Shown: piece by piece, positions 1 to 32,054 of the stretch
Layout of the letters: every line of letters begins with the position of its first letter
How positions within the stretch are numbered: the stretch's first letter is position 1
Translations under genes and position numbers: made by a program
The notes under the pieces: generated by a model
What the model saw: only the letters and a program-made list of their open reading frames with translations
What the model was told of the DNA's origin: nothing
Database searches by the model: none
NCBI GenBank assembly: GCA_964567875.1
Contig: CAZMOH010000001.1
Span: forward strand, 1-32,054
DNA from: an uncultured Candidatus Peribacteria bacterium
Lineage (GTDB): Bacteria; Patescibacteriota; Gracilibacteria; UBA4473
Length of the DNA: 32,054 bases
Direction of reading: 5' to 3'

Positions 1-31
1 AAATGTATTACTAAAAATCCCGCGAAAATTT

Positions 32-160
32 TTATTTTTCGGCTGCTTCAATCGGGTTCTCAATTAAACTAACAACTGTCATTGGACCAACGCCACCAGG
101 AACTGGCGAGATTTTTGCAACAATGTTTTTTGTTGACTTAAAATCAGTATATCTTACTAG
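32..160 (-). pseudogene. folD: C-terminal remnant of folD (methylene-THF dehydrogenase/cyclohydrolase)
   Basis: The minus-strand frame reads LVRYTDFKSTKNIVAKISPVPGGVGPMTVVSLIENPIEAAEK* with the stop at 32-34. PVPGGVGPMT is the conserved FolD C-terminal motif. In-frame TAG-TAA lies at 161-166, there is no start codon, and ychF begins at 272, so the N-terminal ~240 codons are absent. Confidence 0.55.
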
Positions 161-271
161 TTACTATTTTTTTTCGCGAGATTTTTATCATTGCTAATAA
201 TTTGGTTTTACATAAACTAGTGTCGAAAAAATTTCGCGGAATTTTTCTATATAAAACTTCAAAATTATAAA

Positions 272-1372
272 ATGAACTTAAAAATAGGGATTGTCGGTTT
301 ACCAAATGTCGGAAAATCAACACTTTTCAACGCTTTAACTGGTGCCAAAAATGCGGCAGCAGAGAATTTTCCATTTTGTACAATTGACCCTAATGTTGGA
401 ATTGTGAATGTGCCAGATAAACGACTCGAAAATCTCGCGAAAATTGTTAATCCAGAAAAAATACAATATTCCGTAGTAGAATTTGTAGATATTGCCGGAT
501 TGGTTGCCGGGGCTAGTCAAGGAGAAGGTTTAGGGAATAAATTTTTAGCACATATTCGTGAGTGTAGTGCAATTGCGCATGTTTTGCGGGATTTTGAGGA
601 TCCTGATGTGCATCATGTTTCCGCTAAAGTTAATCCTGGTGAGGATTTTGAAGTTATCTTAACAGAGCTTATTTTAGCCGACTTAGAATCAGTTCAAAAA
701 CAAATAGAAAGAGTAACTAAAAAATCACGGAGTGGTGATAAAGAAGCTAAAAAAGATTTAGAATTTCTAGAAAAAATTCGCGGAATTTTAGAAAAAGGGG
801 AACTAGCTAGCTCGCTACAAAAAGAACTAGGCGAAGATTACGCGGAGCTTAAAAAGTTTCATTTATTAACAACTAAACCTTTTTTAATCGTAGCCAATAC
901 TTCTGAAGAAAATTTCATTAATTTTAACGAAGAAAAATTCCGCGAAAAATTAGGCAACAAATTTTCAAAAGTACCGATTGTGCCAATTTGTGCTAAAACG
1001 GAAGCTGAACTGGCCGAACTAGACCCAGCCGAACGATTAGAGTTTTTAAAAGAACTGGGAACTGATAAGTCAGGGTTAGAATTACTAACTCAAAAAAGTT
1101 TTGAATTATTAGGTTTACAAAGTTATTTCACAGCGGGCGTAAAAGAAGTGCGGGCTTGGACAATCTATAAAGGAGACACCGCTCCGCAAGCAGCGGGAGC
1201 AATTCATACTGATTTTGAAAAAGGGTTTATTAAAGCTGACACAATTGCCTATGAAGACTTTATCAAATATGGTGGAGAAGCTGGAGCCAAGGAAGCGGGG
1301 AAAATGCGAATGGAAGGAAAAGATTATATCGTTCAAGACGGTGATGTGATGCACTTTAAATTTAATGTGTAA
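272..1372 (+). CDS. ychF: Ribosome-binding ATPase YchF (OLA1 family GTPase)
   Basis: The N-terminus is MNLKIGIVGLPNVGKSTLFNALT (P-loop). Length is 366 aa, and the C-terminal TGS-like end is ...DGDVMHFKFNV. Confidence 0.95.
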   Translation: MNLKIGIVGLPNVGKSTLFNALTGAKNAAAENFPFCTIDPNVGIVNVPDKRLENLAKIVNPEKIQYSVVEFVDIAGLVAGASQGEGLGNKFLAHIRECSAIAHVLRDFEDPDVHHVSAKVNPGEDFEVILTELILADLESVQKQIERVTKKSRSGDKEAKKDLEFLEKIRGILEKGELASSLQKELGEDYAELKKFHLLTTKPFLIVANTSEENFINFNEEKFREKLGNKFSKVPIVPICAKTEAELAELDPAERLEFLKELGTDKSGLELLTQKSFELLGLQSYFTAGVKEVRAWTIYKGDTAPQAAGAIHTDFEKGFIKADTIAYEDFIKYGGEAGAKEAGKMRMEGKDYIVQDGDVMHFKFNV

Positions 1373-1398
1373 GTTTTAAGCTAAAACTTCGCGGGATT

Positions 1399-2382
1399 TT
1401 AATCTTTTTTCCAGCTATAAAAATAAAGACCTATAATTATTACAGTTAATAACAATAGTGCCTGAATCTTTTTCCAGCCAGTTAACAAAATAGAAATCCC
1501 CGCGAAATTTATTGAAATTATCATAAACAAAAAAACAGCTTTTTTTTCACCAATTTTTTGCGAAACCAAGTGGTGTAGATGTTTTCCATCTCCTTTAAAT
1601 GGTGATTTTTTATCAATAAAAATTCGTCTAATTGTTACAAACCCTAAATCAAGTAAAGGAAAACCTAGAATTAAAAGAGTAGTGGCAATTTTTGTTCCAG
1701 CCATAATAGATAGAATAGCTAATAAAAATCCAATAACTTGTGAGCCAGTATCTCCCAGCAAAATTTTTCCGCGAAAAAAAGTTAGCCAACTTCCTAGCAT
1801 TATTCCTGCGAGTGAAAAAGTTAAGCTTTGAGCTAGGGATAAATCATTTTCCCAAATAACTTCAGGACGAATTAATCCAAAAATACCCAAAGCCAAAAAT
1901 CCAATTCCTGCTACTCCAACACATAATCCTTTCAAGCCATCAAACCAATTCATGGCATTTTGGATAGCTATAATCCAAAAAATAGTTAGAGGAATTGCCA
2001 AATTTCGCGGGATTTCTAGGCTACTATTCCCAAACGGATTGCCAATATAATCAATCTTATCAATAAAAATTGCAAAGATCAAAGCTATTAAGAACTGAGT
2101 TAGAAGTCGCGGCCAAACAGGGAGTTTTTTTCGATCGTCCCAAAAAGAAATTCCTGCGAGAATTATTACTAATCCAAATAAAAGCCATAATTTTTGCCAG
2201 ATTAGTAAGGATAAAATTATTATTATAAGCGTTAATCCTCCGGGGTAAGGGATTTTTTCGCGAGATTTTCCATAGCGTTCAGGAAAATCTAAAAGTCCTA
2301 TTTGAGGAAAAATTTTTACAGAAAATTTTATCAGCAAGGCTGAAATTATTCCGAAAATTAAAAACAATTGAAGATAAAACAT
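1399..2382 (-). CDS. Glycosyltransferase family 4 polyprenyl-phosphate sugar-1-phosphate transferase (WecA/MraY-like)
   Basis: Polytopic membrane protein of 327 aa. It carries NAMNWFDGLKGL (NxxNxxDGxDGL-type), LGDTGSQ and KHLHHLV motifs typical of the WecA/MraY family. Confidence 0.85.
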   Translation of the reverse strand: MFYLQLFLIFGIISALLIKFSVKIFPQIGLLDFPERYGKSREKIPYPGGLTLIIIILSLLIWQKLWLLFGLVIILAGISFWDDRKKLPVWPRLLTQFLIALIFAIFIDKIDYIGNPFGNSSLEIPRNLAIPLTIFWIIAIQNAMNWFDGLKGLCVGVAGIGFLALGIFGLIRPEVIWENDLSLAQSLTFSLAGIMLGSWLTFFRGKILLGDTGSQVIGFLLAILSIMAGTKIATTLLILGFPLLDLGFVTIRRIFIDKKSPFKGDGKHLHHLVSQKIGEKKAVFLFMIISINFAGISILLTGWKKIQALLLLTVIIIGLYFYSWKKD

Positions 2383-2424: not shown

Positions 2425-2442
2425 AAAATTTCGCGGGATTTT
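2425..2442 (-). repeat. Exact 18-mer motif copy (AAAATTTCGCGGGATTTT on the + strand)
   Basis: Lies in the divergent spacer between the GT4 gene and rplP. Confidence 0.95.
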
Positions 2443-5840: not shown

Positions 5841-6242
5841 ATGAAGAAGTTTAAACTAATTGAATTTCCATTATTTTCTGACAAAAAAGGAACGCTTATT
5901 CCGTTTGAATTTTCAGATATTCCTTTTCCAGTTAAGCGTGTTTATCTAGTTACAGGAAAAAAAGAAGTCCCTCGCGGACAACATGCTCATATTATTGAGG
6001 ATGAACTTTTTGTAGCAGTTTCAGGTTCAATTTTAATTAAAATAAATGATGGAATTAAAGATTATGAATTTTTATTAGATAAACCCAATAGAGGACTTTT
6101 GGTGAAAAAAAATTGTTGGCATGAGCTTCATAACTTCACAAAAGATACTATAGTAATGGCTTTTTCCTCCACAGAATATCTTCCAGGTTCTAAGAATTAT
6201 ATTACAAATAAAGAGGAATTTTTTAAAAAATATAAAAATTAA
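5841..6242 (+). CDS. WxcM/FdtA-like cupin (sugar 3,4-ketoisomerase family)
   Basis: 133 aa with KLIEFPLFSDKKGTLIPFEF...VKRVYLVTG...PRGQHAH...ELFVAVSGS, as in the FdtA/WxcM C-terminal domain. Confidence 0.7.
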   Translation: MKKFKLIEFPLFSDKKGTLIPFEFSDIPFPVKRVYLVTGKKEVPRGQHAHIIEDELFVAVSGSILIKINDGIKDYEFLLDKPNRGLLVKKNCWHELHNFTKDTIVMAFSSTEYLPGSKNYITNKEEFFKKYKN

Positions 6243-6258
6243 AATCCCGCGAAATTTT
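6241..6258 (+). repeat. Exact 18-mer motif copy (AAAATCCCGCGAAATTTT on the + strand)
   Basis: Overlaps the TAA stop (6240-6242) of the FdtA-like gene and lies 3' of tRNA-His. Confidence 0.95.
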
Positions 6259-6454: not shown

Positions 6455-7711
6455 ATGTTAAGTTTTTTTTTCAATTTTCTATTTCTAATAACACAAAAAA
6501 TAGAGCTCACTCAAAATCCTGTTTTGAATGAGGCAGAGTTCCATAACAGTGCCCCTTTAAGAAAAATTAAAATCCCGCGAAATTTTAAAAAAAAGATAAC
6601 TTTTTCTTCATCAAAACAAATCTGTCAGTCAAGATTTTTTACTAAATCTGATCAAAAAACATCACAAATAGATAACTTAGACTTTCCTTTAAATAAATAT
6701 TTTCGCCAAACTCTATCTACACCAACTCAAGTCAAAGGAATTTATTTAACTGGATATACTTTTTCTAATAAAAAGAAACGGACAGATTTAATAAATCTTA
6801 TAAAAAATACAGAATTAAACACGATTGTTATTGATTTTCAAGATTCAGATGGAGGGCTTATGTTTCCTGTTCAAGATCCAGAATTACAAAAAATTCCTCT
6901 TTCTACAGTTTATTTATCACGAAAGAAATTCCGCGAAATTTTAAATAAAATACACAAAGAGGGGATTTATACGATTGTTAGGATTACAACTTTTCAAGAT
7001 TCTGGAGCAGTAAAAGCTTTTCCTGATTTAGTTTTAAAAAACAAAAGAGGTGATGATTGGAAAAATTATAAGAATCTTTCTTGGTTAGATATGACAAATA
7101 AAAAATCTTGGGAAATTCCCGCGAAAAAAGCCTTAGAAGCAGTTAAAATGGGATTTGATGAAGTTCAATTTGATTATGTTCGTTTTCCCACAGATGGGAA
7201 TTTAAAATCAATTTCATATTATGAATTAGGAGATAAAAAGAAGTACGAGGTTTTAATAGATTTTTTCTCCTTTTTACAAAAACAAAAAAAGAAACTAGGG
7301 GTTCCTATTTCTGTAGATTTATTTGGTATAACTTACGCAAATTACAGTAATATTTCGCGGGATTTAATGATTGGTCAACGTTTAATTGATGCAGTTAAAT
7401 ATTTTGATTATGTATCTCCAATGCTTTATCCGTCACATTATGTTTCAGGTTATTTAGGCTATAAAAATCCCGCGAATTTTCCATATCAAGTTATTTCAAA
7501 AGCTTTATATGATGGACATAATATGATTAGGAGACACACAAAACAGCCCATTACTAAGACTAGACCATGGCTTCAATCTTTTAATTTAGGAGCAATTTAT
7601 GATTATGGGAAAATTCGTGCTGAAATTCGAGCAGTAGAAGAAAGCGGATCTTCTGGATGGATTTTGTGGAATGCTCGTAATGTCTACGGGATTGGGTTGA
7701 ATAAAAATTAA
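6455..7711 (+). CDS. Putative glycoside-hydrolase-like TIM-barrel protein (DUF4015-like), N-terminal signal/TM
   Basis: Contains VKGIYLTGYT...LNTIVIDFQDSDGG...IYTIVRITTFQD...GFDEVQFDYVRFPTDG. The start was moved to ATG 6455 (MLSFFFNFLFLI) because 6377-6454 overlaps the tRNA-His promoter. Confidence 0.7.
   Translation: MLSFFFNFLFLITQKIELTQNPVLNEAEFHNSAPLRKIKIPRNFKKKITFSSSKQICQSRFFTKSDQKTSQIDNLDFPLNKYFRQTLSTPTQVKGIYLTGYTFSNKKKRTDLINLIKNTELNTIVIDFQDSDGGLMFPVQDPELQKIPLSTVYLSRKKFREILNKIHKEGIYTIVRITTFQDSGAVKAFPDLVLKNKRGDDWKNYKNLSWLDMTNKKSWEIPAKKALEAVKMGFDEVQFDYVRFPTDGNLKSISYYELGDKKKYEVLIDFFSFLQKQKKKLGVPISVDLFGITYANYSNISRDLMIGQRLIDAVKYFDYVSPMLYPSHYVSGYLGYKNPANFPYQVISKALYDGHNMIRRHTKQPITKTRPWLQSFNLGAIYDYGKIRAEIRAVEESGSSGWILWNARNVYGIGLNKN
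6569..6586 (+). repeat. Exact 18-mer motif copy
   Basis: Inside the DUF4015-like CDS, where it encodes KIPRNF. Confidence 0.95.
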
Positions 7712-7727
7712 AATTTCGCGGGATTTT
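7710..7727 (-). repeat. Exact 18-mer motif copy
   Basis: Fused to the TAA stop at 7709-7711. Confidence 0.95.
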
Positions 7728-9281: not shown

Positions 9282-9305
9282 AAAATTCCCGCGAAATTTT
9301 AAAAA

Positions 9306-9737: not shown

Positions 9738-10243
9738 AAAAGATTTTTAAAAACAAAATCGCAATTATATTTTTCATTTGTTTTGTAATTTTGGCTGCAG
9801 TTTGGTGGCAAAATCCCGCGAAATTTTGGCAAATTGGACAAGTTTTCAAAAACTTAATTCTACAGTTAATTCCAGTTTTAGGATTAGTATTTTTAATAAT
9901 GTTTCTAATTAATTATTTTTTTGATAAAAATTTATTGGAAAAAAATTTATTAAAACAGAGTCCTTTAAAAAAATGGGTAGTTTCGATTCTCGCAGGAATT
10001 CTATCTGTTGGACCGGTTTATGTTTGGTATCCATTAATGCAGGATTTACAAGAAAAAAATGTTGAGAACCGTTATATTGCTTGTTTCCTTTATAATCGTG
10101 GCATAAAACTTCACTGGGTAACGATTCTGATTTTTTATTTTGGATTAATTTATGTTTTAATTTTGTTTATAGTGATGACTTTGTTTTCTATTCCACAGGG
10201 GATAATTACTGAGAAATTAATTAATAAATTTTCTTCAAAATGA
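9734..10243 (+). CDS. Small polytopic membrane protein (possible permease subunit)
   Basis: 169 aa and hydrophobic, with ATGA overlaps on both sides. Confidence 0.5.
   Translation: MKKIFKNKIAIIFFICFVILAAVWWQNPAKFWQIGQVFKNLILQLIPVLGLVFLIMFLINYFFDKNLLEKNLLKQSPLKKWVVSILAGILSVGPVYVWYPLMQDLQEKNVENRYIACFLYNRGIKLHWVTILIFYFGLIYVLILFIVMTLFSIPQGIITEKLINKFSSK
9810..9827 (+). repeat. Exact 18-mer motif copy
   Basis: Inside a membrane-protein CDS, where it encodes NPAKF. Confidence 0.95.
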
Positions 10244-11211
10244 ATATCTTTTATCCCTTCGAATATCTCGCGAAATTTATAACTTTTTCTATTTTTTCTC
10301 TTGAAAAAGGAACACATTTAGCGGAAGCTGTAAATTTTTTCTTTTACGATTCTCTGAAAATTTTGTTTTTAATTTTGATTATTACTCATTTAATGAGTTT
10401 GTTGCGGTATTATTTACCAATTGAAAAAATTCGTGGGTTTTTAACTAGTCGGAAATTTTACGGATTAGATTATTTTCTTGCCACAATTTTTGGGGCAATT
10501 ACGCCTTTTTGTTCTTGTTCTTCAATTCCACTTTTTATAGGATTCATCGAAGCCCGTATTCCATTGGGAGTTACTTTTGCTTTTTTGATAACTTCACCTC
10601 TAATTAATGAAGTAGCAATTGCTTTGTTTATTGGAATGTTTGGATTAAAAATCACCCTAGCCTATATTTTCGCGGGAATTTTTATTGGAATGCTGGGGGG
10701 ATTTATTATCGGACAATTAAATTTAGAAAAATATGTCGCCGATTTTGTCTGGAAAGCACATATTAAAAACCATGAAACAAAATCCCGCGAAATTTTGTTT
10801 GCTCAAGTTTGGCAAGAAATTTCCGCTGAAGCTTTTGGAATTATGCGAAAAATTACTGGTTATGTTTTAGTTGGAGTGGCTTTAGGTGGACTTATTCATG
10901 GTTTTGTTCCGCAGGGATTTTTTGAAAAATATCTACAAAAAGCTAGTTGGTGGGGAGTTCCCTTAGCCGTAATTTTAGCTATTCCTTTGTATTCTAACGC
11001 AAGTGGTGTAATTCCAATTATTCAATCACTAGTTACAAAAGGAGTTCCTTTGGGGACAGCTTTAGCTCTGATGATGGGGATTGTCGGACTTTCTTTGCCG
11101 GAAGCTTTTATTCTCAAAAAAGTTCTTAAATGGCAACTTCTTGCGATATTTTTCAGTATCGTAGCGGTTGGAATTATTCTAATTGGTTATATTTTTAATG
11201 CTTTTCTCTAA
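10240..11211 (+). CDS. Predicted permease (ArsP/YraQ-like, PF03773-type)
   Basis: 323 aa, polytopic, with the FCSCSSIPLF motif characteristic of this permease family. Confidence 0.7.
   Translation: MNIFYPFEYLAKFITFSIFSLEKGTHLAEAVNFFFYDSLKILFLILIITHLMSLLRYYLPIEKIRGFLTSRKFYGLDYFLATIFGAITPFCSCSSIPLFIGFIEARIPLGVTFAFLITSPLINEVAIALFIGMFGLKITLAYIFAGIFIGMLGGFIIGQLNLEKYVADFVWKAHIKNHETKSREILFAQVWQEISAEAFGIMRKITGYVLVGVALGGLIHGFVPQGFFEKYLQKASWWGVPLAVILAIPLYSNASGVIPIIQSLVTKGVPLGTALALMMGIVGLSLPEAFILKKVLKWQLLAIFFSIVAVGIILIGYIFNAFL
10779..10796 (+). repeat. Exact 18-mer motif copy
   Basis: Inside the permease CDS, where it encodes KSREI. Confidence 0.95.
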
Positions 11212-11227
11212 AATTTCGCGGGATTTT
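11210..11227 (-). repeat. Exact 18-mer motif copy
   Basis: Fills the 14-bp convergent spacer. It overlaps the permease TAA (11209-11211) and the mscS stop (11226-11228). Confidence 0.95.
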
Positions 11228-12047
11228 ATTTTTTCAAATGTACATCCATCTGCGGATAAGGAATAGAAATTTGAGCTTTATCAAATTCTTGTTTTACTTT
11301 TTCAATAAAATCAAACTTGATATCCCAATAATCATCAGTATTGCACCACGGTCGAACGAAAAAATTAACAGAACTATCAGCTAGTTCTCCTACCACTACT
11401 AAAGGTTTAGGATCTTTTAAAATCCGTTTGTCTTCTTTAATAATTTTTTCTAAAATCCCGCGAACTTTTACCAAATCATCGTCGTAACTTACCCCAAATA
11501 CCATATCAATTCGTCTAGTTTTTTTGGCAGTGTAGTTTGTAATTTCTTTATTAGATAAATCTCCGTTAGGAATAATTATTGTTTTATTATCAATTGTTAC
11601 CAAAGTTGTATTGAAAATAGTTATTTTTTCTACAGTTCCGGCGTGAGAACTGGTTGCAATATAATCTCCAATTTTAAATGGTTCAAAAAGTAAAATTAAA
11701 ACTCCACCAGCGAAATTAGCCAAACTCCCTTGTAAAGAAAGTCCAATAGCTAAACCAGCTGCTCCCAAAAGAGCGATAAATGAAGTCATTGGTACACCTA
11801 AAATTCCCGCGAAAATAATAAAAACGAGAACTTTTAAAGAAATTGAAATCAAGCTTCCTAAAAAAGTCCGAACTTCTAAACTTATTTTTTGTTTAACCAT
11901 TATTTTGTGCAATCCTTTGATTAAAATTCTAACTACTTTAAATCCAATCCATAGCACTAAAAAAGCAAGAATTATTCGCGGAATATAACTTATAGCGCCT
12001 TCGATGAATAATTCCTTATATTTTGCGAAATCTAAATCAATTTTCAT
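11226..12047 (-). CDS. mscS: Small-conductance mechanosensitive channel (MscS family)
   Basis: 273 aa with GAAGLAIGLSLQGSLANFAGGVLILLFEPFKIGDYI, the pore-helix/beta-domain signature. Confidence 0.9.
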   Translation of the reverse strand: MKIDLDFAKYKELFIEGAISYIPRIILAFLVLWIGFKVVRILIKGLHKIMVKQKISLEVRTFLGSLISISLKVLVFIIFAGILGVPMTSFIALLGAAGLAIGLSLQGSLANFAGGVLILLFEPFKIGDYIATSSHAGTVEKITIFNTTLVTIDNKTIIIPNGDLSNKEITNYTAKKTRRIDMVFGVSYDDDLVKVRGILEKIIKEDKRILKDPKPLVVVGELADSSVNFFVRPWCNTDDYWDIKFDFIEKVKQEFDKAQISIPYPQMDVHLKK

Positions 12048-12162: not shown

Positions 12163-12669
12163 ATGAGTGAGTTTAATGATAAAGTTTTCTCAAAAAATAC
12201 GCTAAAAATAAATTCAATTCTAGAAGAATCTAAAAATTTAAATGAAATTGTCTGGAGGTTTAGGCATCGAATTGATATGATTCTGATATCAATAGAAGAG
12301 CTTTTAATATTTTTTTTAAGTGAAAAAATATCTGATTTATTTATGAATGATGAACACTTATTAAAAAACACTGTTATTGCTACAACAATGATTTTTTCAG
12401 CAATGATTTTTTTTATTAAAGGTGAAAATTATAAATCTTTAAAATATAATTATTTGCATTTTGTGAGAAAAATAAGAGATAAAGATGATAAAGAAATTAT
12501 TGATAAATTAATAAAACAATTTAGAAAATCAGAAAAATTTGAAGGATATTGTGCAGAACAAGGAATTTATTTAGCAATTAGAGATATTTATGGAAAAAAT
12601 TCTCCAGAAATGAAAAAATTTAAAAAATTACGAAAGAAATATTCTAGAAATATAATTCCCAATTTCTAA
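12163..12669 (+). CDS. Hypothetical protein (very AT-rich, lacks the window-wide motif)
   Basis: 168-aa ORF, Lys/Ile/Asn-rich with one hydrophobic segment. No recognisable family. Confidence 0.45.
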   Translation: MSEFNDKVFSKNTLKINSILEESKNLNEIVWRFRHRIDMILISIEELLIFFLSEKISDLFMNDEHLLKNTVIATTMIFSAMIFFIKGENYKSLKYNYLHFVRKIRDKDDKEIIDKLIKQFRKSEKFEGYCAEQGIYLAIRDIYGKNSPEMKKFKKLRKKYSRNIIPNF

Positions 12670-12703
12670 AATTTCGCGGGATTTAATTCTTCATTAAAAA
12701 AAA

Positions 12704-19046: not shown

Positions 19047-21614
19047 ATGAGTACCCCCATTCAGCGACAATATTTGGAATTAAAAAAGAAAGTTCCAGAA
19101 GCAATTTTATTTTTCCGATTGGGAGATTTTTACGAGATGTTTTTTGAGGATGCTAAATTAGCTTCACGACTTTTGGGAATTACTTTAACCGCTCGCCACA
19201 AAGGCACAGAAAACGAAATGCCTATGTGTGGTGTACCGTATCACTCAGCAGACAAGTATCTAGAAAAACTAATTGAAAATGGTTATAAAGTCGCTATTGC
19301 CGAACAAGTTCCACTAGCAGATGGTAAATTTTCGCGGGAAATTTCCCGTGTCGTAACTCCCGGAGCCAGTGTCGAAAAAAACCTAAATCCCGATGAGAAT
19401 TCATATCTAGTCGCCATAGATTTTGACTCAAAAAAAGAAAACTACGGTTTATCCGTAGCTGACTTATCAACAGGTGATTTTCGGACAGCCAGTTTCGGCA
19501 ACCTTTTTGATTTTCTAGATGAAATTTGGAAACTAAATCCTCGCGAAATTCTAATTCCCACCGAGATTTTTGATAACGAAAAATTTTGTGAAAAACTTCC
19601 TAATGTTCTCAAAACTCCGCGGAAATTCCCGCGAAAAAATTCAGACAAAATTCTAAAAAACCATTTTGGAGTTAGTGATTTACAAGTTTTTGGGATTGAA
19701 AAACTAGAAATTTTAATCCGAGTTTCAGCGGAAATTTTAAATTATCTACAAGAAACACAACGCAGTAAGCTCCCTCATTTTCAAAAACTAGTAAAATATT
19801 CTACCCGCGAAATAATGCCGTTAGATACGCAGACAATGCGACATTTGGAAATTTTTGAGCCAATTTTTGCGGGCGAAAAACACTCAACTTTGTGGTCGGT
19901 TTTTGAAAAATCAAGAACAGCTATGGGAAGCCGTCTTTTACGAAGCTGGCTAGCGAACCCGCTTTTGGACCGCGATAAAATTTTATCCCGCCTGCAAGCA
20001 GTGGAGGAATTAGTAGAAAACACAAAATTTCGCGGGATTTTGGACGAAACCTTAAAAAAAGTCTGTGATTTACAACGAGTAATTGCTCGTTTAGCTATTA
20101 ATCGCGGTAACGCTCGTGATTTAGTTTTTCTTCGCAATACTCTGGAAGTTTTTCCTGTTTTAACAGAAATTTGTCAGTCAGCAAATTCCGCGAAATTTTC
20201 TGAAAAAGCTCAGATTTTTCCCCAATTTTCCGATATTTTTACCAAACTTACCTCTGCTCTAAATGATGATCCACCTTTGGAAATTACTGCGGGCGGAATT
20301 TTTCGTGACGGATATTCCGCGAAATTAGACGAATTACGAAATTTGCAAAAAAATGCTAAAAACTGGCTAGAGGATTTTCTTGAAAAAAAGAAAAAAGAAT
20401 CTGGAATTGAAAAAGTGCGGATTAAGTTTTCCAAAACTTTTGGTTTCTGTCTGGAAGTTTCCAAAGCGGCTGCGCAAAACGTGCCAGCTACTTGGCAACG
20501 CCGACAAACTCTAGTTAATGCCGAAAGATTTACCACGCCCGAATTAGCCGAATACGAAACCAAAGTTCTTTCCGCTGAAAGTGAAGCTTATGACTTGGAA
20601 CACAAAATGTTTCAGGATTTGCGGGCAGAAGTGATGAATTTCGCTGGGAAATTACAAGTGGCTTCGGAAGCAATTGCCGAAATTGATACTATTTTAACTT
20701 TAACCAAAACCGCTTTGCGGTGGCGCTGGACTAAACCTGAAATCTTAAAAAATTCGCGGGATTTACAAATTAAAAACGGACGACATCCTGTGGTAGAAAA
20801 AATTTCTACGGAAAGATTTATTGCTAATGATTTATATTTAAGTGAAAAATCCCGCGAATTTTTTTGGCTGATAACTGGGCCAAATATGTCAGGAAAATCC
20901 ACTTTTCTTCGTCAAAACGCTCTCATTATTTTGCTCGCGCAAATGGGAAGCTTTGTTCCGGCAGAAAAATGTGAAATGGGAATTGTTGACCGAATTTTTA
21001 CCCGAGTGGGAGCGAGTGACAATTTGGCAGCGGGGAAGTCCACTTTTTTTGTAGAAATGGCGGAAATGTCCCATATTTTAAATTCGGCGACTGCCAAAAG
21101 TTTTATTATTTTAGACGAAATTGGTCGCGGAACTTCCACTTTTGACGGAATATCTTTAGCTTGGGCGATTACGGAATTCTTACACGATAAAATTGGCGCA
21201 AAAACAATTTTTGCGACCCATTATCACGAACTGATTGATTGTGTTGAAAATCTAGATTTCGCGGGGAATTACCATGTTTCCGTAGCACAAAACGAAGAGG
21301 AAATCATCTTCCTCCGCCGAATAAAAAAAGGTGGTATTTCTGACTCCTTTGGAATAGAAGTGGCGGCCTCGGTTGGATTTCCCAAGGAAGTCATTGCAAA
21401 ATCCCGCGAAATTTTGGAAAAACTGGAAACAGAAAGTTTAGACAAAAACATTCAACCAAATCTCTTTTCTGCTCCAAGAATCCGTGAGAAAATCGTGGAG
21501 ATGAAGTTAGAATCAGAAGTAGAAAAACTTTTAGCAGAAATCAATCCGGACGATTTATCACCACGCGAAGCGCTGGAAAAAGTTTATGAGTTGAAGAAAA
21601 AACTTAAAAAATAA
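19047..21614 (+). CDS. mutS: DNA mismatch repair protein MutS
   Basis: 855 aa, beginning TPIQRQYLELKKK...FFRLGDFYEMFFEDA, with Walker A ITGPNMSGKSTFLRQ and the THYHEL motif. Confidence 0.97.
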   Translation: MSTPIQRQYLELKKKVPEAILFFRLGDFYEMFFEDAKLASRLLGITLTARHKGTENEMPMCGVPYHSADKYLEKLIENGYKVAIAEQVPLADGKFSREISRVVTPGASVEKNLNPDENSYLVAIDFDSKKENYGLSVADLSTGDFRTASFGNLFDFLDEIWKLNPREILIPTEIFDNEKFCEKLPNVLKTPRKFPRKNSDKILKNHFGVSDLQVFGIEKLEILIRVSAEILNYLQETQRSKLPHFQKLVKYSTREIMPLDTQTMRHLEIFEPIFAGEKHSTLWSVFEKSRTAMGSRLLRSWLANPLLDRDKILSRLQAVEELVENTKFRGILDETLKKVCDLQRVIARLAINRGNARDLVFLRNTLEVFPVLTEICQSANSAKFSEKAQIFPQFSDIFTKLTSALNDDPPLEITAGGIFRDGYSAKLDELRNLQKNAKNWLEDFLEKKKKESGIEKVRIKFSKTFGFCLEVSKAAAQNVPATWQRRQTLVNAERFTTPELAEYETKVLSAESEAYDLEHKMFQDLRAEVMNFAGKLQVASEAIAEIDTILTLTKTALRWRWTKPEILKNSRDLQIKNGRHPVVEKISTERFIANDLYLSEKSREFFWLITGPNMSGKSTFLRQNALIILLAQMGSFVPAEKCEMGIVDRIFTRVGASDNLAAGKSTFFVEMAEMSHILNSATAKSFIILDEIGRGTSTFDGISLAWAITEFLHDKIGAKTIFATHYHELIDCVENLDFAGNYHVSVAQNEEEIIFLRRIKKGGISDSFGIEVAASVGFPKEVIAKSREILEKLETESLDKNIQPNLFSAPRIREKIVEMKLESEVEKLLAEINPDDLSPREALEKVYELKKKLKK
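20024..20041 (-). repeat. Exact 18-mer motif copy
   Basis: Inside mutS, where it encodes KFRGIL. Confidence 0.95.
21398..21415 (+). repeat. Exact 18-mer motif copy
   Basis: Inside mutS, where it encodes KSREIL. Confidence 0.95.
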
Positions 21615-21631
21615 AAATTTCGCGGGATTTT
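21614..21631 (-). repeat. Exact 18-mer motif copy
   Basis: Fused to the mutS TAA stop (21612-21614). Confidence 0.95.
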
Positions 21632-23535: not shown

Positions 23536-24003
23536 TTATCTCAGAGCATACAGCGCCACACCGGCCGCGATAGAAACATTAAGTGAAGTTTTTTGTCCGT
23601 ACATAGGAATTTCTAAATGTGTTTCGCATTTATCTAAAACATTTTCTGAAACTCCAGTTACTTCATTGCCTAAAATTAAAGCAATTTTTTCAACTGTTGA
23701 AAAATCTTCCGCAAAAATTTCGCGGGATTTTGGACTTTGTTCTAAAGCTATGATTTGAAATCCTTCTTCTTTTAAGTTTTCAATTAGTTCTGCAATATTT
23801 TCTATTTTTTCCCATTCAATAAAATCTTCCGCTCCAAGTGAAACTTTTTCAATTCTCCTATCAGGTGGACAACCTGTGTATCCGCATAAATAAACTTTTT
23901 GCCAACCAGCTCCGTCAGCTGTCCTAAAAATCGACCCAACATTATGCAAAGATCGCAAGTTTTCTAAAATAACCACGCGTTTTTTTTTCGCGGAATTTTT
24001 CAT
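23536..24003 (-). CDS. SpoU/TrmH-family RNA 2'-O-methyltransferase
   Basis: 155 aa with LRSLHNVGSIFRTADGAG, LILGNEVTGVS and EIPMYGQKTSLNVSIAAGVALY (SPOUT knot motifs). Confidence 0.85.
   Translation of the reverse strand: MKNSAKKKRVVILENLRSLHNVGSIFRTADGAGWQKVYLCGYTGCPPDRRIEKVSLGAEDFIEWEKIENIAELIENLKEEGFQIIALEQSPKSREIFAEDFSTVEKIALILGNEVTGVSENVLDKCETHLEIPMYGQKTSLNVSIAAGVALYALR
23714..23731 (-). repeat. Exact 18-mer motif copy
   Basis: Inside the SpoU/TrmH CDS. Confidence 0.95.
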
Positions 24004-24498: not shown

Positions 24499-24516
24499 AA
24501 AATTTCGCGGGATTTT
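24499..24516 (-). repeat. Exact 18-mer motif copy
   Basis: Lies between the divergent rpmB and pth promoters. Confidence 0.95.
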
Positions 24517-25104: not shown

Positions 25105-25651
25105 AAATTTTCGTGGGATTTTAGGGACATGGGTCTATTCTAATGAAACAAATCCCGTTTTTCCATTGGGAAAAGTTGTTGATATTGTAATTGACCCTTT
25201 AATAGCAAAGGGAGTTGCTTTATGGATAAAAACAATTGATGGATTAAGGTTGGTTGATATTCGTGATATTCAAACCTGGAGAAAAAATATTTATATTCCG
25301 AGTCAAAAGGAAATTCTAAAACCAACAGAATTCCCGCGAATTTTACCAATATTAGAAAGAGAAGTGCCAATTATTGGGGCGGATGTTTTTGTTCAGGAAA
25401 TTAAAAATTTTCGAAAAATTGGAAAAGTTATTAACTTTGCTTTTATAAAAACAGAGATTTTAATTACGGATATAGAAGTAAATACTGGTTGGTGGATTTT
25501 TGGAAAAAAAATAAAAATAACACGCAAAAGAATTTTAAAAATAGATAAAACTGGAATTTTTGTTACTAATAATTTAATTCAAGACACAAAAGTAGTTAGT
25601 AAAAAAACAGAAGATGGAATAACTTTTTCATCGACTCCTAGTCCAAATTAA
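25094..25651 (+). CDS. Hypothetical protein (possibly PRC-barrel-like N-terminal region)
   Basis: 185-aa ORF overlapping the pth end by 11 nt. The LGKVVDIVIDP...GVALWI pattern only loosely suggests a PRC barrel. Confidence 0.45.
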   Translation: MAIENFRGILGTWVYSNETNPVFPLGKVVDIVIDPLIAKGVALWIKTIDGLRLVDIRDIQTWRKNIYIPSQKEILKPTEFPRILPILEREVPIIGADVFVQEIKNFRKIGKVINFAFIKTEILITDIEVNTGWWIFGKKIKITRKRILKIDKTGIFVTNNLIQDTKVVSKKTEDGITFSSTPSPN

Positions 25652-25667
25652 AATTTCGCGGGATTTT
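25650..25667 (-). repeat. Exact 18-mer motif copy
   Basis: Fills the convergent spacer, fused to the TAA at 25649-25651 and touching the GGCT-like stop. Confidence 0.95.
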
Positions 25668-26060: not shown

Positions 26061-27113
26061 TTATCTTAATTTTTTTGCTAGCCGATAAATTTTATACCAA
26101 AATCTATCAAAAACGATTTCTACTCCGGGGCGATAAGTTTTACGATACCCACCAAATTTCCACTTAAATTCGGAAATTCCAGAATAAGCATGATTTGGTT
26201 CATTTTCTGGAGCAATTCCCAGAAAGTCATAAGTTCGACAGCCCCGTTTTTTCGCGAAATTTATCATAAACCATTGCAAACCATACGGCGCCATTAAATT
26301 TCGATATTCACGATTAGAAGTTGATGCGCCAAAATAATAAATTGCTTTATCCCCACAAAAAGTAGAAATCGCTGTGGCAATTCTCTCGCCCTCAAATTCC
26401 GCGAAAAAAAGTACTGCATATTTATTCAAATTTTTTACAAAAGACTTGTAATAACTTTTTTGATGTCCACTAAATCCATCACGACTTGTTGTTTCGGTTG
26501 ATAAATTATAAAAATCATCTAAATCTTGATCGGTTATTTTTTCTGGTAAAATTTCGCGGAATTTTACGCCTTTTTTAGTTGATAATTTTATATTATATCG
26601 GCCTTTACGCTTCATTTCAGCTAAAAGTTCTTCATTGTTTTTCGTTAGATCTAGCTCCAAAGTATCAGTTGGTTGATAATTTTGAGTTGCTTTTTGTACA
26701 GAAAATCCCGCGAAAATATCCGGATCTTGTTTTTCCAAATAAGGATCAAGTCGCCAAAACAATCCTTTTTCACGATTTTCTAAAATTTCGCGGGATTTTT
26801 TTAACAAAAACTTAACAGCTTCTTCTTGTTTATCAGCAAAAACTGGGCCACGGGCTGAGTACCACCAAAATTTATTTAAAAATCCAGTTTGCATTTTAAC
26901 AGCCAAAATAGTTGCCAAAATTTCCCGCGAATTTTTATCGCGCACACCAAATCCCAAAACGGGCCCGCGTCCCGGAATTTGTTCTTGTAATTTTTTGAAA
27001 TCAGAAATCTGGTGAATTGAGCCACGTTTATTATTTATCACAAAGCTATCCCAATTTTCTTTTTCTGTTTCAGAAAACTCAAAGAATTCAAAATTTCGCG
27101 GGATTTTAAGCAT
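26061..27113 (-). CDS. FemAB-family peptidoglycan aminoacyltransferase (FemX-like)
   Basis: 350 aa with WDSFV...HQISDF, MKRKGRYNIKLSTKKGVKF, YYFGASTSNREYRNLMAPYGLQW and YDFLGI...EFKWKFGG. Confidence 0.85.
   Translation of the reverse strand: MLKIPRNFEFFEFSETEKENWDSFVINNKRGSIHQISDFKKLQEQIPGRGPVLGFGVRDKNSREILATILAVKMQTGFLNKFWWYSARGPVFADKQEEAVKFLLKKSREILENREKGLFWRLDPYLEKQDPDIFAGFSVQKATQNYQPTDTLELDLTKNNEELLAEMKRKGRYNIKLSTKKGVKFREILPEKITDQDLDDFYNLSTETTSRDGFSGHQKSYYKSFVKNLNKYAVLFFAEFEGERIATAISTFCGDKAIYYFGASTSNREYRNLMAPYGLQWFMINFAKKRGCRTYDFLGIAPENEPNHAYSGISEFKWKFGGYRKTYRPGVEIVFDRFWYKIYRLAKKLR
26782..26799 (-). repeat. Exact 18-mer motif copy
   Basis: Inside the FemAB-family CDS. Confidence 0.95.
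27090..27107 (-). repeat. Exact 18-mer motif copy
   Basis: Forms codons 3-8 of the FemAB-family gene (MLKIPRNF...). Confidence 0.95.
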
Positions 27114-28631: not shown

Positions 28632-28698
28632 CGTCTCGATTTTGCTAAAAAACAATAATTTGTCAATTTTTTGCAAATTTCGCGGGATTTTTTTGTTT

Positions 28699-29351: not shown

Positions 29352-29369
29352 TAAAATCCCGCGAAATTT
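29352..29369 (+). repeat. Exact 18-mer motif copy
   Basis: Lies in the spacer upstream of the AstE/AspA-family gene. Confidence 0.95.
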
Positions 29370-29408
29370 TGCGGTGAATCTTAATTTATTTCTTAAAACT
29401 TTTTAAAA

Positions 29409-30374
29409 ATGAAAAACCCTTTATTTGATGACGGTAAAAACCCTAAACAACGACAACAACTTTATAATGCAGAATTATCTCAACCAACCTATGGTGAAAA
29501 AATGTGTGAATTTTTTAAAATTTCGCGGGATTTAAAATTTCCAGAAATATTTGATGAAAATAAGTGGCTTAAAGAAGTCGATAGCGGAAAAAACGGACCA
29601 ATAATTGCTATATCTGGGGCAATTCACGGAAACGAAAAAATAGGAATTGAAATAATTCGCGAAATTCAAAACATCAAATTAGAAGTTGGAAAACTTATTC
29701 TTATTGGTGGAAATCCTCGTGCTTATAAGAAAAATAAACGTTTTATTGATTATAATTTAAATCGCTCCTTTGGAGATCCCCCACTTGCTCCCGATAAAAG
29801 TTATGAAAAAATTCGTGCCGAACTAATCGGCAATATTCTGAAAACCTGTGATTTATTAATTGATATTCACCAATCTAATTCTGATAACACTTTTTGTGTT
29901 TGCGAGCCAAATAGTAATTCTCTGGCAACAAGTTTAAAGGAAAAATATGTTATAAATAGTATGGACGAAGGTTGTACCGATAAATATATGGATAGTTTGG
30001 GAAAACAAGCTGTTTGTATTGAGTTAGGGAAAATAGGTGATACAAAATCCCGCGAAAAAAATTTACAACAAGGATTAAAACAAGTGAAATTTATTTTAGC
30101 AAAAAATGGATTAATTAATGGAAATTACAAACCTGCTGGAAATGAAAAATCAGAAATTTTAAAAGTTTTTAAAGTTTATAAAGTTCAAAAAAAATTTACT
30201 TTAGATAAGAATATTCAAGCTTTTCAGATTTTGAAAACTGGAGAAATGATTGGAAATGACGGAAAAACTAAAATAATTTGTCCTCCAGAATGGAATAATT
30301 GTCGGATTTTATTCCCTAGAAGCCAAGAAACTATAGGACAAGAAGCTTTTTCTATAGCTAGAATTGAAAATTAG
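29409..30374 (+). CDS. Succinylglutamate desuccinylase/aspartoacylase (AstE/AspA, M14-like) family protein
   Basis: 321 aa with IAISGAIHGNEKIG (HxxE zinc site), YNLNRSF and LIDIHQS. Confidence 0.8.
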   Translation: MKNPLFDDGKNPKQRQQLYNAELSQPTYGEKMCEFFKISRDLKFPEIFDENKWLKEVDSGKNGPIIAISGAIHGNEKIGIEIIREIQNIKLEVGKLILIGGNPRAYKKNKRFIDYNLNRSFGDPPLAPDKSYEKIRAELIGNILKTCDLLIDIHQSNSDNTFCVCEPNSNSLATSLKEKYVINSMDEGCTDKYMDSLGKQAVCIELGKIGDTKSREKNLQQGLKQVKFILAKNGLINGNYKPAGNEKSEILKVFKVYKVQKKFTLDKNIQAFQILKTGEMIGNDGKTKIICPPEWNNCRILFPRSQETIGQEAFSIARIEN

Positions 30375-30444
30375 AAAAATTCCGCGAAATTTTGCTAATC
30401 TTGTAAACAAATTTATAATTCCCGCGAAAATTTAATTTTTAAAA

Positions 30445-32054
30445 ATGTTGAGAACTCATACCTGTGGCGAACTGACAGCCAAAAATATTGGTGAAGAAGT
30501 TGTTTTAACTGGTTGGATGCATCGTCGCCGAGATTTAGGAGGACTGATTTTCTTTGATTTACGAGACAGATATGGATTAACCCAAATTATCGTTGATCCA
30601 AAAATGACCGAAGCGCACGGTGTGGCAGAAAAAATTCGAGCGGAGTTTGTGCTAAAAATTCGCGGAAAAGTGCAGGCGAGAGCGGAAGGACAAGCGAATA
30701 AAGAGATGGACACTGGAGAAATTGAAATTTTCGCGGAATCTTTGGAAATTATTAACGAAGCCCAAACTCCTCCGTTTGAAATTTCCTCGGAAACAGAAGT
30801 TAAAAATGAAGATTTGCGGTTGCAATATCGTTATCTAGATTTACGACGCGAAAAAATGCAAAAAAATCTTCTTTTGCGAAACAATATGACTAACACCATT
30901 CGCAATTATTTTCATCGCGAAAACTTTATTGATGTGGAAACACCAATTATGGTTAAAGGAACTCCCGAAGGATCCCGCGAATATTTAGTTCCTTCTCGTT
31001 TGCACCCGGGGAAATTTTATGTTTTACCGCAATCTCCACAACAATTAAAACAACTTTTGATGGTTGGTGGACTGGATAAATATTTTCAGATTGCGCGTTG
31101 TTTTCGTGATGAAGATTTACGCGGAGATCGTCAGCCGGAATTTACACAATTTGAGATTGAGGCAAGTTTTGTCGAACAGGACGATGTGATTGACTATATT
31201 GAACGCTGTTTTGTGGATTTAAATGAGAATCACGCCAAAGATAAGGAGTGGAAAAAGTTTTTAGTTGATGGAAAATTTCGTCGGCTAACCTGGCTTGAGG
31301 CGATGACTAAATATGGAAGTGATAAGCCAGATCTGCGATTTGGATTAGAGTTAACTGATATTACAGAAATTTCGCGGGATTCTGGATTTGGAGTTTTTGA
31401 TAATTCAGAACGGGTTTTTGCCTTAGTGGTAAAAAAGGAACTTGGAGAATTCTCGCGAAAAAAAATAGATGAATTAGAAAAAGTAGCTAAACAAAACGGA
31501 GCACGCGGACTAGCTTGGTGGCGGGTTGGTGAAGAAACTGGAGCGGTTGGAAAAAACACAACTGCTAAATTCCGCGAAATTTTAACCGACAAAGTTGGCG
31601 CTAATTCTGGTGATATAATTTTCTTTGGAGCGGGAGATTTTATTTCTGCGACAGAGCCACTGGGAGCTGTTCGTTCGCAACTCGGAGCTGATTTAGGATT
31701 AAAAAATTCGCGGGATTTTGCTTATTGTTGGGTAGTTGATTTTCCACTTTTTGAAAAAAAAGATGACGGCACAATTGCTTCAGCTCATCATCCTTTTACG
31801 GCCGTCCATCCTGATGATGAAAGAATGTTGAAAACTGAACCAATGAAATGTCGGGCTTTAGCTTACGATATAGTTTTAAATGGAGTGGAATTAGGTGGTG
31901 GATCAATCAGAATCCATAATCCAAAACTACAAAAAGAAATTTTTGAAATTCTAGGAATGACCGAAGAAGAAATCTCGCGAAAATTTGGTCATCTCCTTAA
32001 AGCTTTTGAATACGGCTGTCCGCCCCACGGCGGTTGTGCGATGGGATTAGATCG
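30445..32054 (+). CDS. aspS: Aspartyl-tRNA synthetase (5' part; runs off the window end)
   Basis: My own translation is MLRTHTCGELTAKNIGEEVVLTGWMHRRRDLGGLIFFDLRDRYGLTQIIVDP... It contains class II motifs (FYVLPQSPQQ, ...RCFRDEDLRGDRQPEFTQFE, ...GGGSIRIHN). It is absent from the ORF track because there is no stop in the window. Confidence 0.93.
   Translation, partial: MLRTHTCGELTAKNIGEEVVLTGWMHRRRDLGGLIFFDLRDRYGLTQIIVDPKMTEAHGVAEKIRAEFVLKIRGKVQARAEGQANKEMDTGEIEIFAESLEIINEAQTPPFEISSETEVKNEDLRLQYRYLDLRREKMQKNLLLRNNMTNTIRNYFHRENFIDVETPIMVKGTPEGSREYLVPSRLHPGKFYVLPQSPQQLKQLLMVGGLDKYFQIARCFRDEDLRGDRQPEFTQFEIEASFVEQDDVIDYIERCFVDLNENHAKDKEWKKFLVDGKFRRLTWLEAMTKYGSDKPDLRFGLELTDITEISRDSGFGVFDNSERVFALVVKKELGEFSRKKIDELEKVAKQNGARGLAWWRVGEETGAVGKNTTAKFREILTDKVGANSGDIIFFGAGDFISATEPLGAVRSQLGADLGLKNSRDFAYCWVVDFPLFEKKDDGTIASAHHPFTAVHPDDERMLKTEPMKCRALAYDIVLNGVELGGGSIRIHNPKLQKEIFEILGMTEEEISRKFGHLLKAFEYGCPPHGGCAMGLD

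Follow-up and report, generated by a model that had tools for sequence, protein, structure and literature searches.

Positions 1 to 32,054 of contig CAZMOH010000001.1, from an uncultured Candidatus Peribacteria bacterium, were analyzed as a whole, and this stretch of 32,054 bp (33.5% G+C) is called the window below. It is a gene-dense bacterial stretch that uses the standard genetic code. The first part carries ychF, a GT4/MraY-like gene, the genes for ribosomal proteins L16 to S8, HPF, FdtA-like and DUF4015 genes, purH, ArsP permease genes, and mscS; the middle part carries nusA, ruvC, pilT, a gene for an M23/SLH protein, trmB, mutS, pyrE, and an EamA gene; and the last part carries SpoU, L28, pth, FemAB, FecR-like, YerC/TrpR-like, and AstE-like genes, followed by aspS, which runs off the window end. 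Genes for tRNA-His and tRNA-Val are also present. Recurring through genes and spacers alike is an asymmetric 18-bp word, AAAATCCCGCGAAATTTT (hereafter the word), whose copies obey spatial rules with respect to one another and which we read, with reservations, as the binding site of an architectural protein.

The exact 18-mer occurs 21 times in the window (8 copies on the plus strand and 13 on the minus strand), i.e., 0.66 per kb, and its 8-mer core, CCCGCGAA/TTCGCGGG, occurs 77 times (40 + 37), i.e., 2.4 per kb. The hand counts of an earlier note on this DNA (21 exact copies, 13 in one orientation and 8 in the other, and 75 to 80 cores) thus hold on recount. The 10-mer TCCCGCGAAA is present in 56 exact copies. 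For the 8-mer core, Markov models of orders 0, 1, 2, and 3 predict 0.16, 0.64, 1.1, and 7.8 copies, respectively, against the 77 observed, the expectation at higher orders being itself inflated by the presence of the word. The enrichment amounts to ~71-fold under the second-order model, and CCCGCGAA is the most over-represented 8-mer of the window (z = 24.7). With up to three mismatches allowed, the 18-mer matches at 79 places, compared with 0.52 ± 0.81 in dinucleotide-preserving shuffles of the window, so that the enrichment asserted earlier withstands both the Markov models of orders 0 to 3 and the shuffles. In total, the word makes up ~4 to 5% of all bases, coding sequence included. Its density had been called unprecedented, which was an overstatement: the core, at 2.4 per kb, compares with up to 2.73 per kb for HIP1 (GCGATCGC, found in cyanobacteria) and with ~2.5% of the genome for the uptake sequence kingDUS (PMC5861425, PMC3630211).

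The window contains 160 CGCG sites, 116 of which are accompanied by at least three of the four flanking core bases and can be read as oriented copies, in genes as well as in spacers; CGCG not belonging to the word stays near its expected frequency. A position matrix built from these 116 oriented sites holds ~22 bits, all of them within 18 positions, with sharp edges and flat flanks. The word is a quasi-palindrome, AAAAT..CGCG..ATTTT, with strict asymmetry at the two positions on either side of CGCG. Within the frame AAAT..CGCG..ATTT, pooled dense DNA yielded 452 cases of CC..AA/TT..GG versus 2 of TTCGCGAA and 0 of CCCGCGGG, the symmetric variants of the 18-mer being AAAATTTCGCGAAATTTT and AAAATCCCGCGGGATTTT. 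Asymmetry of this strictness implies a specific reader, more than bendable DNA. The oriented copies of the window are balanced between the two orientations (62 versus 54), and the word is non-palindromic and about equally frequent both ways, as had been noted from the letters. Among contigs, the heterogeneity of orientation gives a chi-square of 49.5 on 68 degrees of freedom (p = 0.96), and orientation is uncorrelated with GC skew (rho -0.07). A Chi/KOPS-like polarity function, which the earlier note had listed as an alternative, was rejected on these grounds.

Conserved genes contain half of the good copies, among them 8 exact and dozens of near-exact copies in both orientations. These intragenic copies fall into all six frame and orientation classes and encode unrelated peptides (e.g., KSREIL, NPAKF, IFAGI, IRGIL, ISRD, and KIPRNF); a peptide motif was rejected since the six frames give different peptides. 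No RNA fold was predicted for the word on either strand (minimum free energy of 0), and 18 gene-end contexts compared with shuffles gave a mean z of -0.13. An intrinsic terminator or RNA hairpin was likewise rejected, given these values and the lack of gene-oriented bias. With all six frames used, both orientations present, and no RNA fold, the word is a signal at the level of DNA and not of RNA or peptide.

Confinement to this window would, according to the earlier note, have undone the claim of enrichment, but the word is not so confined. A scan for the exact 18-mer in one genome per species found it many times in two metagenome-assembled genomes (MAGs), JALVIB01 ('Ca. Gracilibacteria' A1_metabat1_scaf2bin.029) and CAZYIR01 ('Ca. 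Peribacteria' binchicken_co219_8), and the word saturates both; many short metagenome contigs also bear it. The other genomes scanned gave mostly single chance matches, save for a few short or isolated contigs. At 75 to 83% nucleotide identity to both MAGs, the window represents a third species, and an exact-protein lookup found no protein on record identical to its MutS. The 8-mer core reaches 2.40 copies per kb in the window, 2.48 in JALVIB01 (365 kb), and 1.76 in CAZYIR01, and the consensus is identical over the 18 bp in all three, with the TTCC variant commoner in CAZYIR01. Relatives with a 62 to 64% identical MutS, including one represented by a 962-kb contig, had no copy and no comparable word, and IMG/VR phage contigs were without it apart from one chance match in a contig of 54% G+C. 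The word is genome-wide and limited to a shallow clade, with several thousand copies per genome. A strain contig (L091), found via homologues, is 99.4% identical to the window at the nucleotide level (70 differences) and too close for a test of gain and loss. Literature searches on the word itself returned only irrelevant matches to the pET/T7 promoter region and to primers, and found no report of uptake sequences or of the word in the candidate phyla radiation, where it appears to be the first hyper-abundant word. It should be usable as a marker for binning contigs of the clade and for tracing DNA exchange.

Several loci outside these three species deserve mention. In the 962-kb contig (L090; ERZ21878363 ctg6932c), an apparent word, AAAAGATCCGAAAA, proved to be a coding tandem repeat within one gene (...CCTGCAAAAGATCCGAAAAAAGAAAATGC..., 7 copies). 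Another relative (L088; GCA_018673235.1, JABHDD010000024.1), whose MutS is 64% identical and whose G+C content is 43.6%, has 178 CGCG in 16.5 kb, several-fold over the composition expectation, and AAATCCCG ranks among the most frequent of its 8-mers that contain G+C (11 copies, raw count), with no extended consensus; this could be a precursor state of the word or simply CpG richness. A Tenacibaculum sp. MAG chromosome (OZ251501.1, 3,904,001 to 3,912,000; locus L042) carries at positions 493 to 5110 of the locus a phage-like integrative island, within a Bacteroidota chromosome, with genes for a Bro-N/Ant-like protein, an unknown protein of 703 aa, and a large serine integrase, then for a DDE transposase. 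This island holds 6 copies of the word with up to two mismatches in ~5 kb, and its Bro-N protein is 49.5% identical to an open reading frame (ORF) of the JALVIB01 locus L018. It could reflect inter-phylum transfer, which would raise the question of a host candidate for an epibiont, or an assembly chimera, and it is an example of the exchange for which the word might serve as a tracer. Two contigs of 1.5 and 2.4 kb (L024 and L084) from a 'Saprospiraceae' MAG (JALVEG01) have a motif density typical of the Peribacteria-like clade and are probably mis-binned, because JALVIB01 stems from the same study series.

Relative to genes, copies with up to two mismatches occupy 23 of the 24 spacers that are truly intergenic and 14 nt or longer, the sole exception being that between HPF and FdtA. 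Intergenic DNA makes up ~8% of the window and holds about half of such copies, which by hand sum is a roughly ten-fold enrichment. Three convergent spacers of 14 to 15 nt (ArsP/MscS, 25652 to 25666, and RuvC/PilT, the last with a decayed copy) consist of the word alone, and there the A- and T-arms of the word provide TAA on both strands. Among 349 genes in the window and related loci, taken from crude ORF calls, 64 have a word whose first base is the second or third of the stop codon, which forms a sharp peak. The word could accordingly be a gene-boundary expression signal, i.e., a protein-dependent terminator, an insulator, or a translation-termination context, with the intragenic copies as tolerated noise. 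The occupancy of spacers, the peak at +1/+2 of the stop codon, the convergent spacers shrunk to the word alone, and the small number of canonical terminators in the window are all in line with such a role. We nevertheless regard it as improbable: the word is oriented at random with respect to the upstream gene (74 versus 64 in the 349 calls), the exact and near-exact copies inside genes lie in both orientations, RNA structure is lacking, and stop-codon fusion would also be expected from deletion pressure around any retained A-rich element. In addition, canonical G+C-rich hairpins with T-runs are found at sites that require them, at 12838 to 12863, after tRNA-Val, and at 29261 to 29285, after the YerC/TrpR-like gene, so that ordinary intrinsic termination exists beside the word. 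The largest gap between copies, and the most motif-poor stretch of the window, is the ribosomal-protein operon.

Table. Exact, one-mismatch, and decayed copies of the word in the window, with strand and context.
Feature	Position	Strand	Context
Exact 18-mer	2425..2442	-	GT4/L16 spacer
Exact 18-mer	6241..6258	+	Fused to FdtA-like stop codon (TAAAATCCCGCG...)
Exact 18-mer	6569..6586	+	Within DUF4015 ORF, encodes KIPRNF
Exact 18-mer	7710..7727	-	Fused to DUF4015 stop codon
Exact 18-mer	9810..9827	+	Within ORF 9734-10243
Exact 18-mer	10779..10796	+	Within ArsP permease gene, encodes TKSREIL
Exact 18-mer	11210..11227	-	Whole 14-nt convergent ArsP/MscS spacer and part of both stop codons
Exact 18-mer	12962..12979	-	Upstream of nusA
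Exact 18-mer	14299..14316	-	5 nt past nusA stop codon
Exact 18-mer	15986..16003	+	Fused to M23/SLH stop codon; 18/18 in JALVIB01 locus L075
Exact 18-mer	18254..18271	+	Divergent M23/TrmB spacer; conserved in L075
Exact 18-mer	18913..18930	-	Fused to trmB stop codon; 18/18 in L075
Exact 18-mer	20024..20041	-	Within mutS (TKFRGIL), variable protein position, no indel versus homologues
Exact 18-mer	21398..21415	+	Within mutS (AKSREIL); homologues already A/S-R/K-E-I/V-L there
Exact 18-mer	21614..21631	-	Fused to mutS stop codon
Exact 18-mer	23714..23731	-	Within SpoU methylase gene; 18/18 in L075
Exact 18-mer	24499..24516	-	Divergent L28/Pth spacer
Exact 18-mer	25650..25667	-	Fills 15-nt convergent spacer between ORF 25094-25651 and GGACT gene
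Exact 18-mer	26782..26799	-	Within FemAB gene (KKSREIL); 18/18 in L018
Exact 18-mer	27090..27107	-	FemAB gene, near 5' end (KIPRNF)
Exact 18-mer	29353..29370	+	TrpR-like/AstE spacer
One-mismatch copy	14..31	+	
One-mismatch copy (TTCC variant)	228..245	-	Upstream of ychF
One-mismatch copy	1383..1400	-	26-nt convergent YchF/GT4 spacer
One-mismatch copy	9283..9300	+	24-nt PurH/ArsP-N spacer
One-mismatch copy	11452..11469	+	Within MscS gene
One-mismatch copy	12668..12685	-	Fused to stop codon of ORF 12163-12669
One-mismatch copy	12870..12887	+	After tRNA-Val
One-mismatch copy	16819..16836	-	Within M23/SLH gene; sole motif position differing in strain contig L091 (99.4% identical)
One-mismatch copy	20846..20863	+	Within mutS
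One-mismatch copy	26548..26565	-	Within FemAB; orthologous JALVIB01 site (L018) in opposite orientation, AAAATTTCGCGGAATTTT versus AAAATCCCGCGAAATTTT
One-mismatch copy	28674..28691	-	FecR-like gene start; conserved in L018
One-mismatch copy	29517..29534	-	Within AstE-like gene
One-mismatch copy	30376..30393	+	2 nt past AstE-like stop codon
One-mismatch copy	31702..31719	-	Within aspS (ORF leaving window end)
Decayed copy AAAATCCTGCGAAATTTA	14853..14870	-	Fills 15-nt convergent RuvC/PilT spacer

The mutS gene illustrates how copies come to lie in coding sequence. It holds ~13 of them, its protein is equal in length to motif-free homologues, and in the alignment the copies appear as substitutions without six-codon insertions. 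Some use pre-adapted peptides (PREIL, A/S-R-E-I-L) and others remodel variable positions, the proteome being reshaped to fit the word, as at MutS positions 193 to 198 and 326 to 332. When the window was compared with itself, similarity never extended beyond ~20 to 48 bp, and no longer repeat unit was found. The lack of a long repeat unit, together with the unchanged length of MutS, excludes transposition, and the comparisons indicate that the word arose by point substitution and not by insertion. The idea of a mobile, selfish, or in-frame inserting element of the REP/REPIN/MITE kind, spread by transposition or gene conversion, is thereby largely refuted, and we give it almost no credence. High copy number would suit such an element, and the inverted neighbors found at 90 to 330 bp (see below) resemble terminal inverted repeats, but self-similarity in the window is too short, half of the good copies sit within conserved genes with no length change relative to homologues, the word forms no hairpin, and no RAYT or IS200-like gene was seen. 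REP, BIME, and REPIN elements share with the word that they are very numerous short elements at gene ends; however, REPs are extragenic hairpin-forming palindromes mobilized by RAYT transposases, whereas the word is unfolded, equally often in genes, and not inserted as a unit. REP pairs are inverted and are bound by architectural proteins (IHF, gyrase).

Between species, ~9 kb could be aligned at ~77.6% identity, and in this small sample at least 7 of 10 copies were identical at 17 to 18 of 18 positions. At one FemAB site (26548 to 26565), the word is kept in L018 with its polarity flipped. A directional force, whether selection or drive, is acting on the DNA sequence itself. One source of such a force would be modification or repair, of which the word would be a by-product of the HIP1 or very-short-patch (VSP) kind, regenerated by a CGCG-centered methyltransferase combined with biased short-patch repair or conversion. 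The core does contain CGCG, a palindrome; orphan methyltransferases accompany HIP-type words (PMC4390886); and the flip of orientation at 26548 relative to L018 shows that this site was re-made and not simply inherited. Against this, a search of ~440 kb from incomplete genomes found no cognate methyltransferase for the word, i.e., no m5C methyltransferase (PCQ motif), and no Vsr (CFWH motif); the one methyltransferase that turned up is part of a restriction-modification system of the DpnII (GATC) type. CGCG outside the word is about as frequent as expected, an 18-bp asymmetric specificity with A/T arms goes far beyond known methyltransferase or repair sites, and biased repair does not explain the helical phasing between copies described below. 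We therefore judge an origin in modification or repair to be quite unlikely, slightly more so than a gene-boundary signal. The DpnII-type cluster lies at 5219 to 7711 of locus L056 (JALVIB010000044.1) and comprises a DUF5655/NucS-like ORF, a DpnA/CcrM-like N6 methyltransferase (DPPY), and a DpnII endonuclease; presumably, its target is GATC and it has nothing to do with the word.

Few genomic words are hyper-abundant, and function has been proven only for DNA uptake sequences (DUS, with Neisseriaceae dialects) and the USS (the uptake signal sequences of Pasteurellaceae), while that of HIP1 is disputed after 30 years. Like the word, DUS and USS are short, asymmetric, hyper-abundant, present in both orientations and, by substitution, in all frames, enriched outside coding constraint, and common to close relatives but replaced or absent in distant ones. 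USS have a 9-bp core with helically phased T-tracts, an arrangement of G+C core and phased A/T tracts that the architecture of the word resembles (PMC3458573). DUS dialects occupy 1 to 2.5% of genomes and depend on the pilin ComP, and the core density of the word matches that of the densest of them, kingDUS, at ~2.5% of the Kingella oralis genome (PMC3630211). The differences are that the word is 18 bp long with strong specificity versus 9 to 12 bp for DUS and USS, that it belongs to a lineage of the candidate phyla radiation, and that at gene ends it is single and stop-fused, whereas about half of DUS and USS copies are in terminators, as inverted pairs forming hairpins.

The proposal in the earlier note of a recognition word of the DUS/USS type is thus borne out in part, in its sequence traits (DNA-level, asymmetric, orientation-neutral, in all frames, made by substitution, enriched at gene ends, conserved, and clade-specific), with uptake as a candidate function. 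Under this proposal, a surface receptor, either a minor type IV pilin or a competence protein, would bind the word, DNA of the same species would be imported and recombined, and uptake bias would drive saturation. The hallmarks of DUS and USS (abundance, both orientations, all frames, substitution, conservation, and enrichment outside coding constraint) speak for it, as do specificity at the level of a clade (three species with the word, relatives with MutS at 62 to 64% without it) and the sparseness of the word in the ribosomal-protein operon. Moreover, a drive would account for thousands of copies in a shallow clade, and HIP1 is now reported to enhance transformation. The PilT named in the earlier note is indeed encoded in the window (TIGR01420, 399 bits) and type IV pilins are encoded in JALVIB01, but ComEC, ComEA, and DprA were not found in ~0.4 to 0.6 Mb of clade DNA, covered by partial genomes and by crude screens with Pfam checks. 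The membrane proteins considered for ComEC were identified as a pyrophosphatase, a P-type ATPase, MraY, PAP2, PrsW, EamA, BacA, and an Na/Ca exchanger, and a phosphoribosyltransferase of the window considered as ComF is PyrE. The absence of close inverted pairs forming terminator hairpins weighs against an uptake tag, which we consider possible but rather unlikely. If it were correct, the word would be direct evidence of specific DNA import in organisms that are thought to live on imported nucleic acids.

Further constraints come from the way copies are placed relative to one another. The tiles of JALVIB01 and CAZYIR01 used here had been chosen for at least one exact copy, which causes a slight bias in density and none in orientation or phasing. 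Gaps of less than 60 bp between copies are ~3-fold depleted, mutual avoidance extending up to about 60 to 90 bp. Adjacent copies have the same orientation in 457 of 1,143 cases (40%) in JALVIB01 (p = 1e-11). At ~60 to 330 bp, inverted pairs are 2- to 4-fold more numerous than direct ones, with a same-orientation fraction of ~0.28 at 60 to 300 bp and with '+-' neighbors as common as '-+' neighbors; inverted pairs closer than 60 bp are depleted, and orientation is random beyond ~450 bp. Pairs lying in a single ORF are inverted in 202 cases and direct in 68 (75% inverted, p = 1e-16), and the rule also holds across gene boundaries.

The centre-to-centre distances follow a period of 10.35 to 10.4 bp, with peaks at 40, 50, 61, 71, 81, 92, 102, 113, and 123 bp and onward. 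The strength of this phasing, R, is 0.24 to 0.35, with p values of 9e-9 at 20 to 100 bp, 1e-11 at 100 to 200 bp, and 2e-3 at 200 to 300 bp; no phasing was detected beyond ~400 bp, and a 3-bp component is lacking. The period emerged from a scan of 126 periods, and the p values survive correction and were replicated on independent data (genome loci, p = 1e-9; metagenome loci, p = 6e-5; window alone, n = 35, R = 0.49, p = 2.5e-4). Whether the two copies share an ORF (p = 1.5e-10) or not (p = 2e-11), and whichever strand the gene is on, phasing is equal, and it is thus not a coding effect of alpha-helices. A general periodicity of A-tracts was rejected as well, as non-motif A4/T4 tracts show a weak signal at 11.1 bp (R = 0.026) and nothing at 10.4 bp. 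A role in compacting the nucleoid has been suggested for phased A-tracts; in these genomes, their clusters give only this weak 11.1-bp background, as opposed to the 10.4-bp period of the word.

Phasing is also polar. Direct pairs and '+-' pairs, the latter with their AAATTTT arms facing, have R values of 0.25 to 0.36 (p ~1e-8), whereas phasing is absent from the back-to-back '-+' pairs (R ~0.02 to 0.08). The phased distance has a constant offset (d = 10.4n - 2), and the flanking WW dinucleotides, with motif-like sites masked, show the 10.4-bp period weakly, at double the strength on the AAATTTT side. The simplest reading is that each copy acts one-sidedly toward its AAATTTT arm. Taken together, exclusion, phasing, one-sidedness, and pairing bear the physical mark of something polar that engages several copies at once on a single face of folded DNA. 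Such rules restrict the mechanism far more than abundance alone and allow in vitro tests that need no culture. A model with a single uptake tag predicts neither inter-copy phasing nor one-sidedness, nor an exclusion of 60 to 90 bp or inverted pairing at 90 to 330 bp, and no polar phasing or inverted neighboring at 90 to 330 bp is reported for DUS or USS in the literature searched. For an uptake tag, polarity and phasing would have to reflect directional, non-rotating threading or multivalent binding of copies, and a multivalent or directional uptake machine could also yield phasing.

These spatial rules lead us to rank an architectural role over a classical uptake tag, and the binding site of a nucleoid or boundary protein, which the earlier note had listed as one alternative, fits them better than uptake by a single tag. 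We therefore tentatively favor a cooperative architectural protein, bending or bridging DNA, that binds the word. From the word itself, its statistics, origin, and conservation, and the rules of spacing, we infer a protein reader, a cooperative and polar mode of reading, and an architectural purpose. The word AAAATCCCGCGAAATTTT would be an asymmetric, sequence-specific protein-recognition site, multiplied by point substitutions in one shallow clade of Peribacteria/Gracilibacteria and held in place by selection or a comparable directional force. Its copies would act jointly, a neighbor within ~300 bp lying at whole helical turns if at least one of the two has the other on its AAATTTT side. Each word would be bound in fixed polarity by an abundant protein that bends or bridges DNA and that, along a single helix face, would contact or wrap DNA or a partner protein to one side. 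The array of words might then serve as a sequence-encoded scaffold to fold and partition a very small, gene-dense chromosome, with one copy marking nearly every gene boundary. Chromosome folding would in that case be encoded at ~4 to 5% of bases, coding sequence included.

Known words and sites offer partial parallels to such a protein site. HIP1 occurs at 0.2 to 2.73 per kb, enriched 16- to 317-fold (second-order Markov model), with conservation at orthologous sites, and a role in nucleoid structure has been proposed for it (PMC5861425). In density, enrichment, presence in genes and spacers, and orthologous conservation (the last of which argues for selection), HIP1 resembles the word, and it likewise has no RNA, peptide, or expression role; its function is debated between nucleoid structure and transformation, to which recent preprints tie it. 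However, HIP1 is a perfect palindrome of 8 bp and is linked to two orphan methyltransferases, whereas the word is 18 bp long and strictly asymmetric, and the periodicity reported for HIP1 is 10 to 90 kb versus a 10.4-bp helical repeat up to 300 bp. The word core TTTCGCGGGA is one base off the center of the Bacillus Noc-binding site (NBS), ATTTCCCGGGAAAT, a resemblance that may be due to chance. NBS and parS, which are sites of chromosome-organizing proteins, also have A/T arms around a G+C center, but these ParB-family sites are perfect 16-bp palindromes bound by symmetric dimers and number tens per genome, whereas the word is asymmetric and numbers thousands. The word is unusually information-rich among hyper-abundant words, being 18 bp long and asymmetric with measurable spatial rules.

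A number of points weigh against an architectural protein. The reader protein was not identified, no ParB-like GERR motif and no ParB- or HU/IHF-like signatures having been found by a crude regular-expression search of the sampled DNA, and we know of no nucleoid protein with an 18-bp asymmetric site at such density. Ordinary selection could hardly be kept up on thousands of sites that are each weak, and molecular drive, through uptake bias and recombination, explains rapid clade-specific accumulation more easily. The orientation rule could partly be a side effect of selection against deletion between close direct repeats or against hairpins of very close inverted repeats. The phasing data come mostly from two related MAGs and short metagenome contigs and include no closed genome. 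Finally, the experimentally shown functions of hyper-abundant words (DUS, USS, and recently HIP1) all concern transformation (PMC3458573, PMC3630211). In a broader and more speculative form, to which we assign a low probability, the word would be the anchor of a sequence-encoded chromatin, in which a polar architectural protein engages thousands of sites on one side and one helical face, so that genes and spacers both carry the folding pattern of an ultra-small chromosome. It might further be the tag by which an epibiotic or predatory cell of the candidate phyla radiation tells its own DNA from imported host DNA. If true, either version would constitute a cis-code of a new, genome-wide kind, and no earlier one would have been described in this radiation.

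Minor features of the window include a YerC/YecD-family, TrpR-like helix-turn-helix gene (28918 to 29232) that adjoins a 241-nt spacer with three motif-like copies; there is no evidence that its product is the reader. The ribosomal-protein operon (L16, L29, S17, L14, L24, L5, S14, and S8; 2557 to 5726) ends after S8, where the hibernation-factor gene follows on the other strand, with no L6, L18, S5, or secY downstream. At 9306 to 11211, three reading frames stand in tandem, their stops and starts overlapping: an ArsP-like N-terminal fragment of 143 aa, an unknown ORF of 169 aa, and a complete ArsP permease of 323 aa. The arrangement may reflect a partial duplication or a split gene. Lastly, a 113-aa minus-strand ORF at 21647 to 21988 is probably spurious, and in the strain contig L091 a 58-aa LysW-type zinc-ribbon protein is called on the plus strand at ~21750 to 21930.

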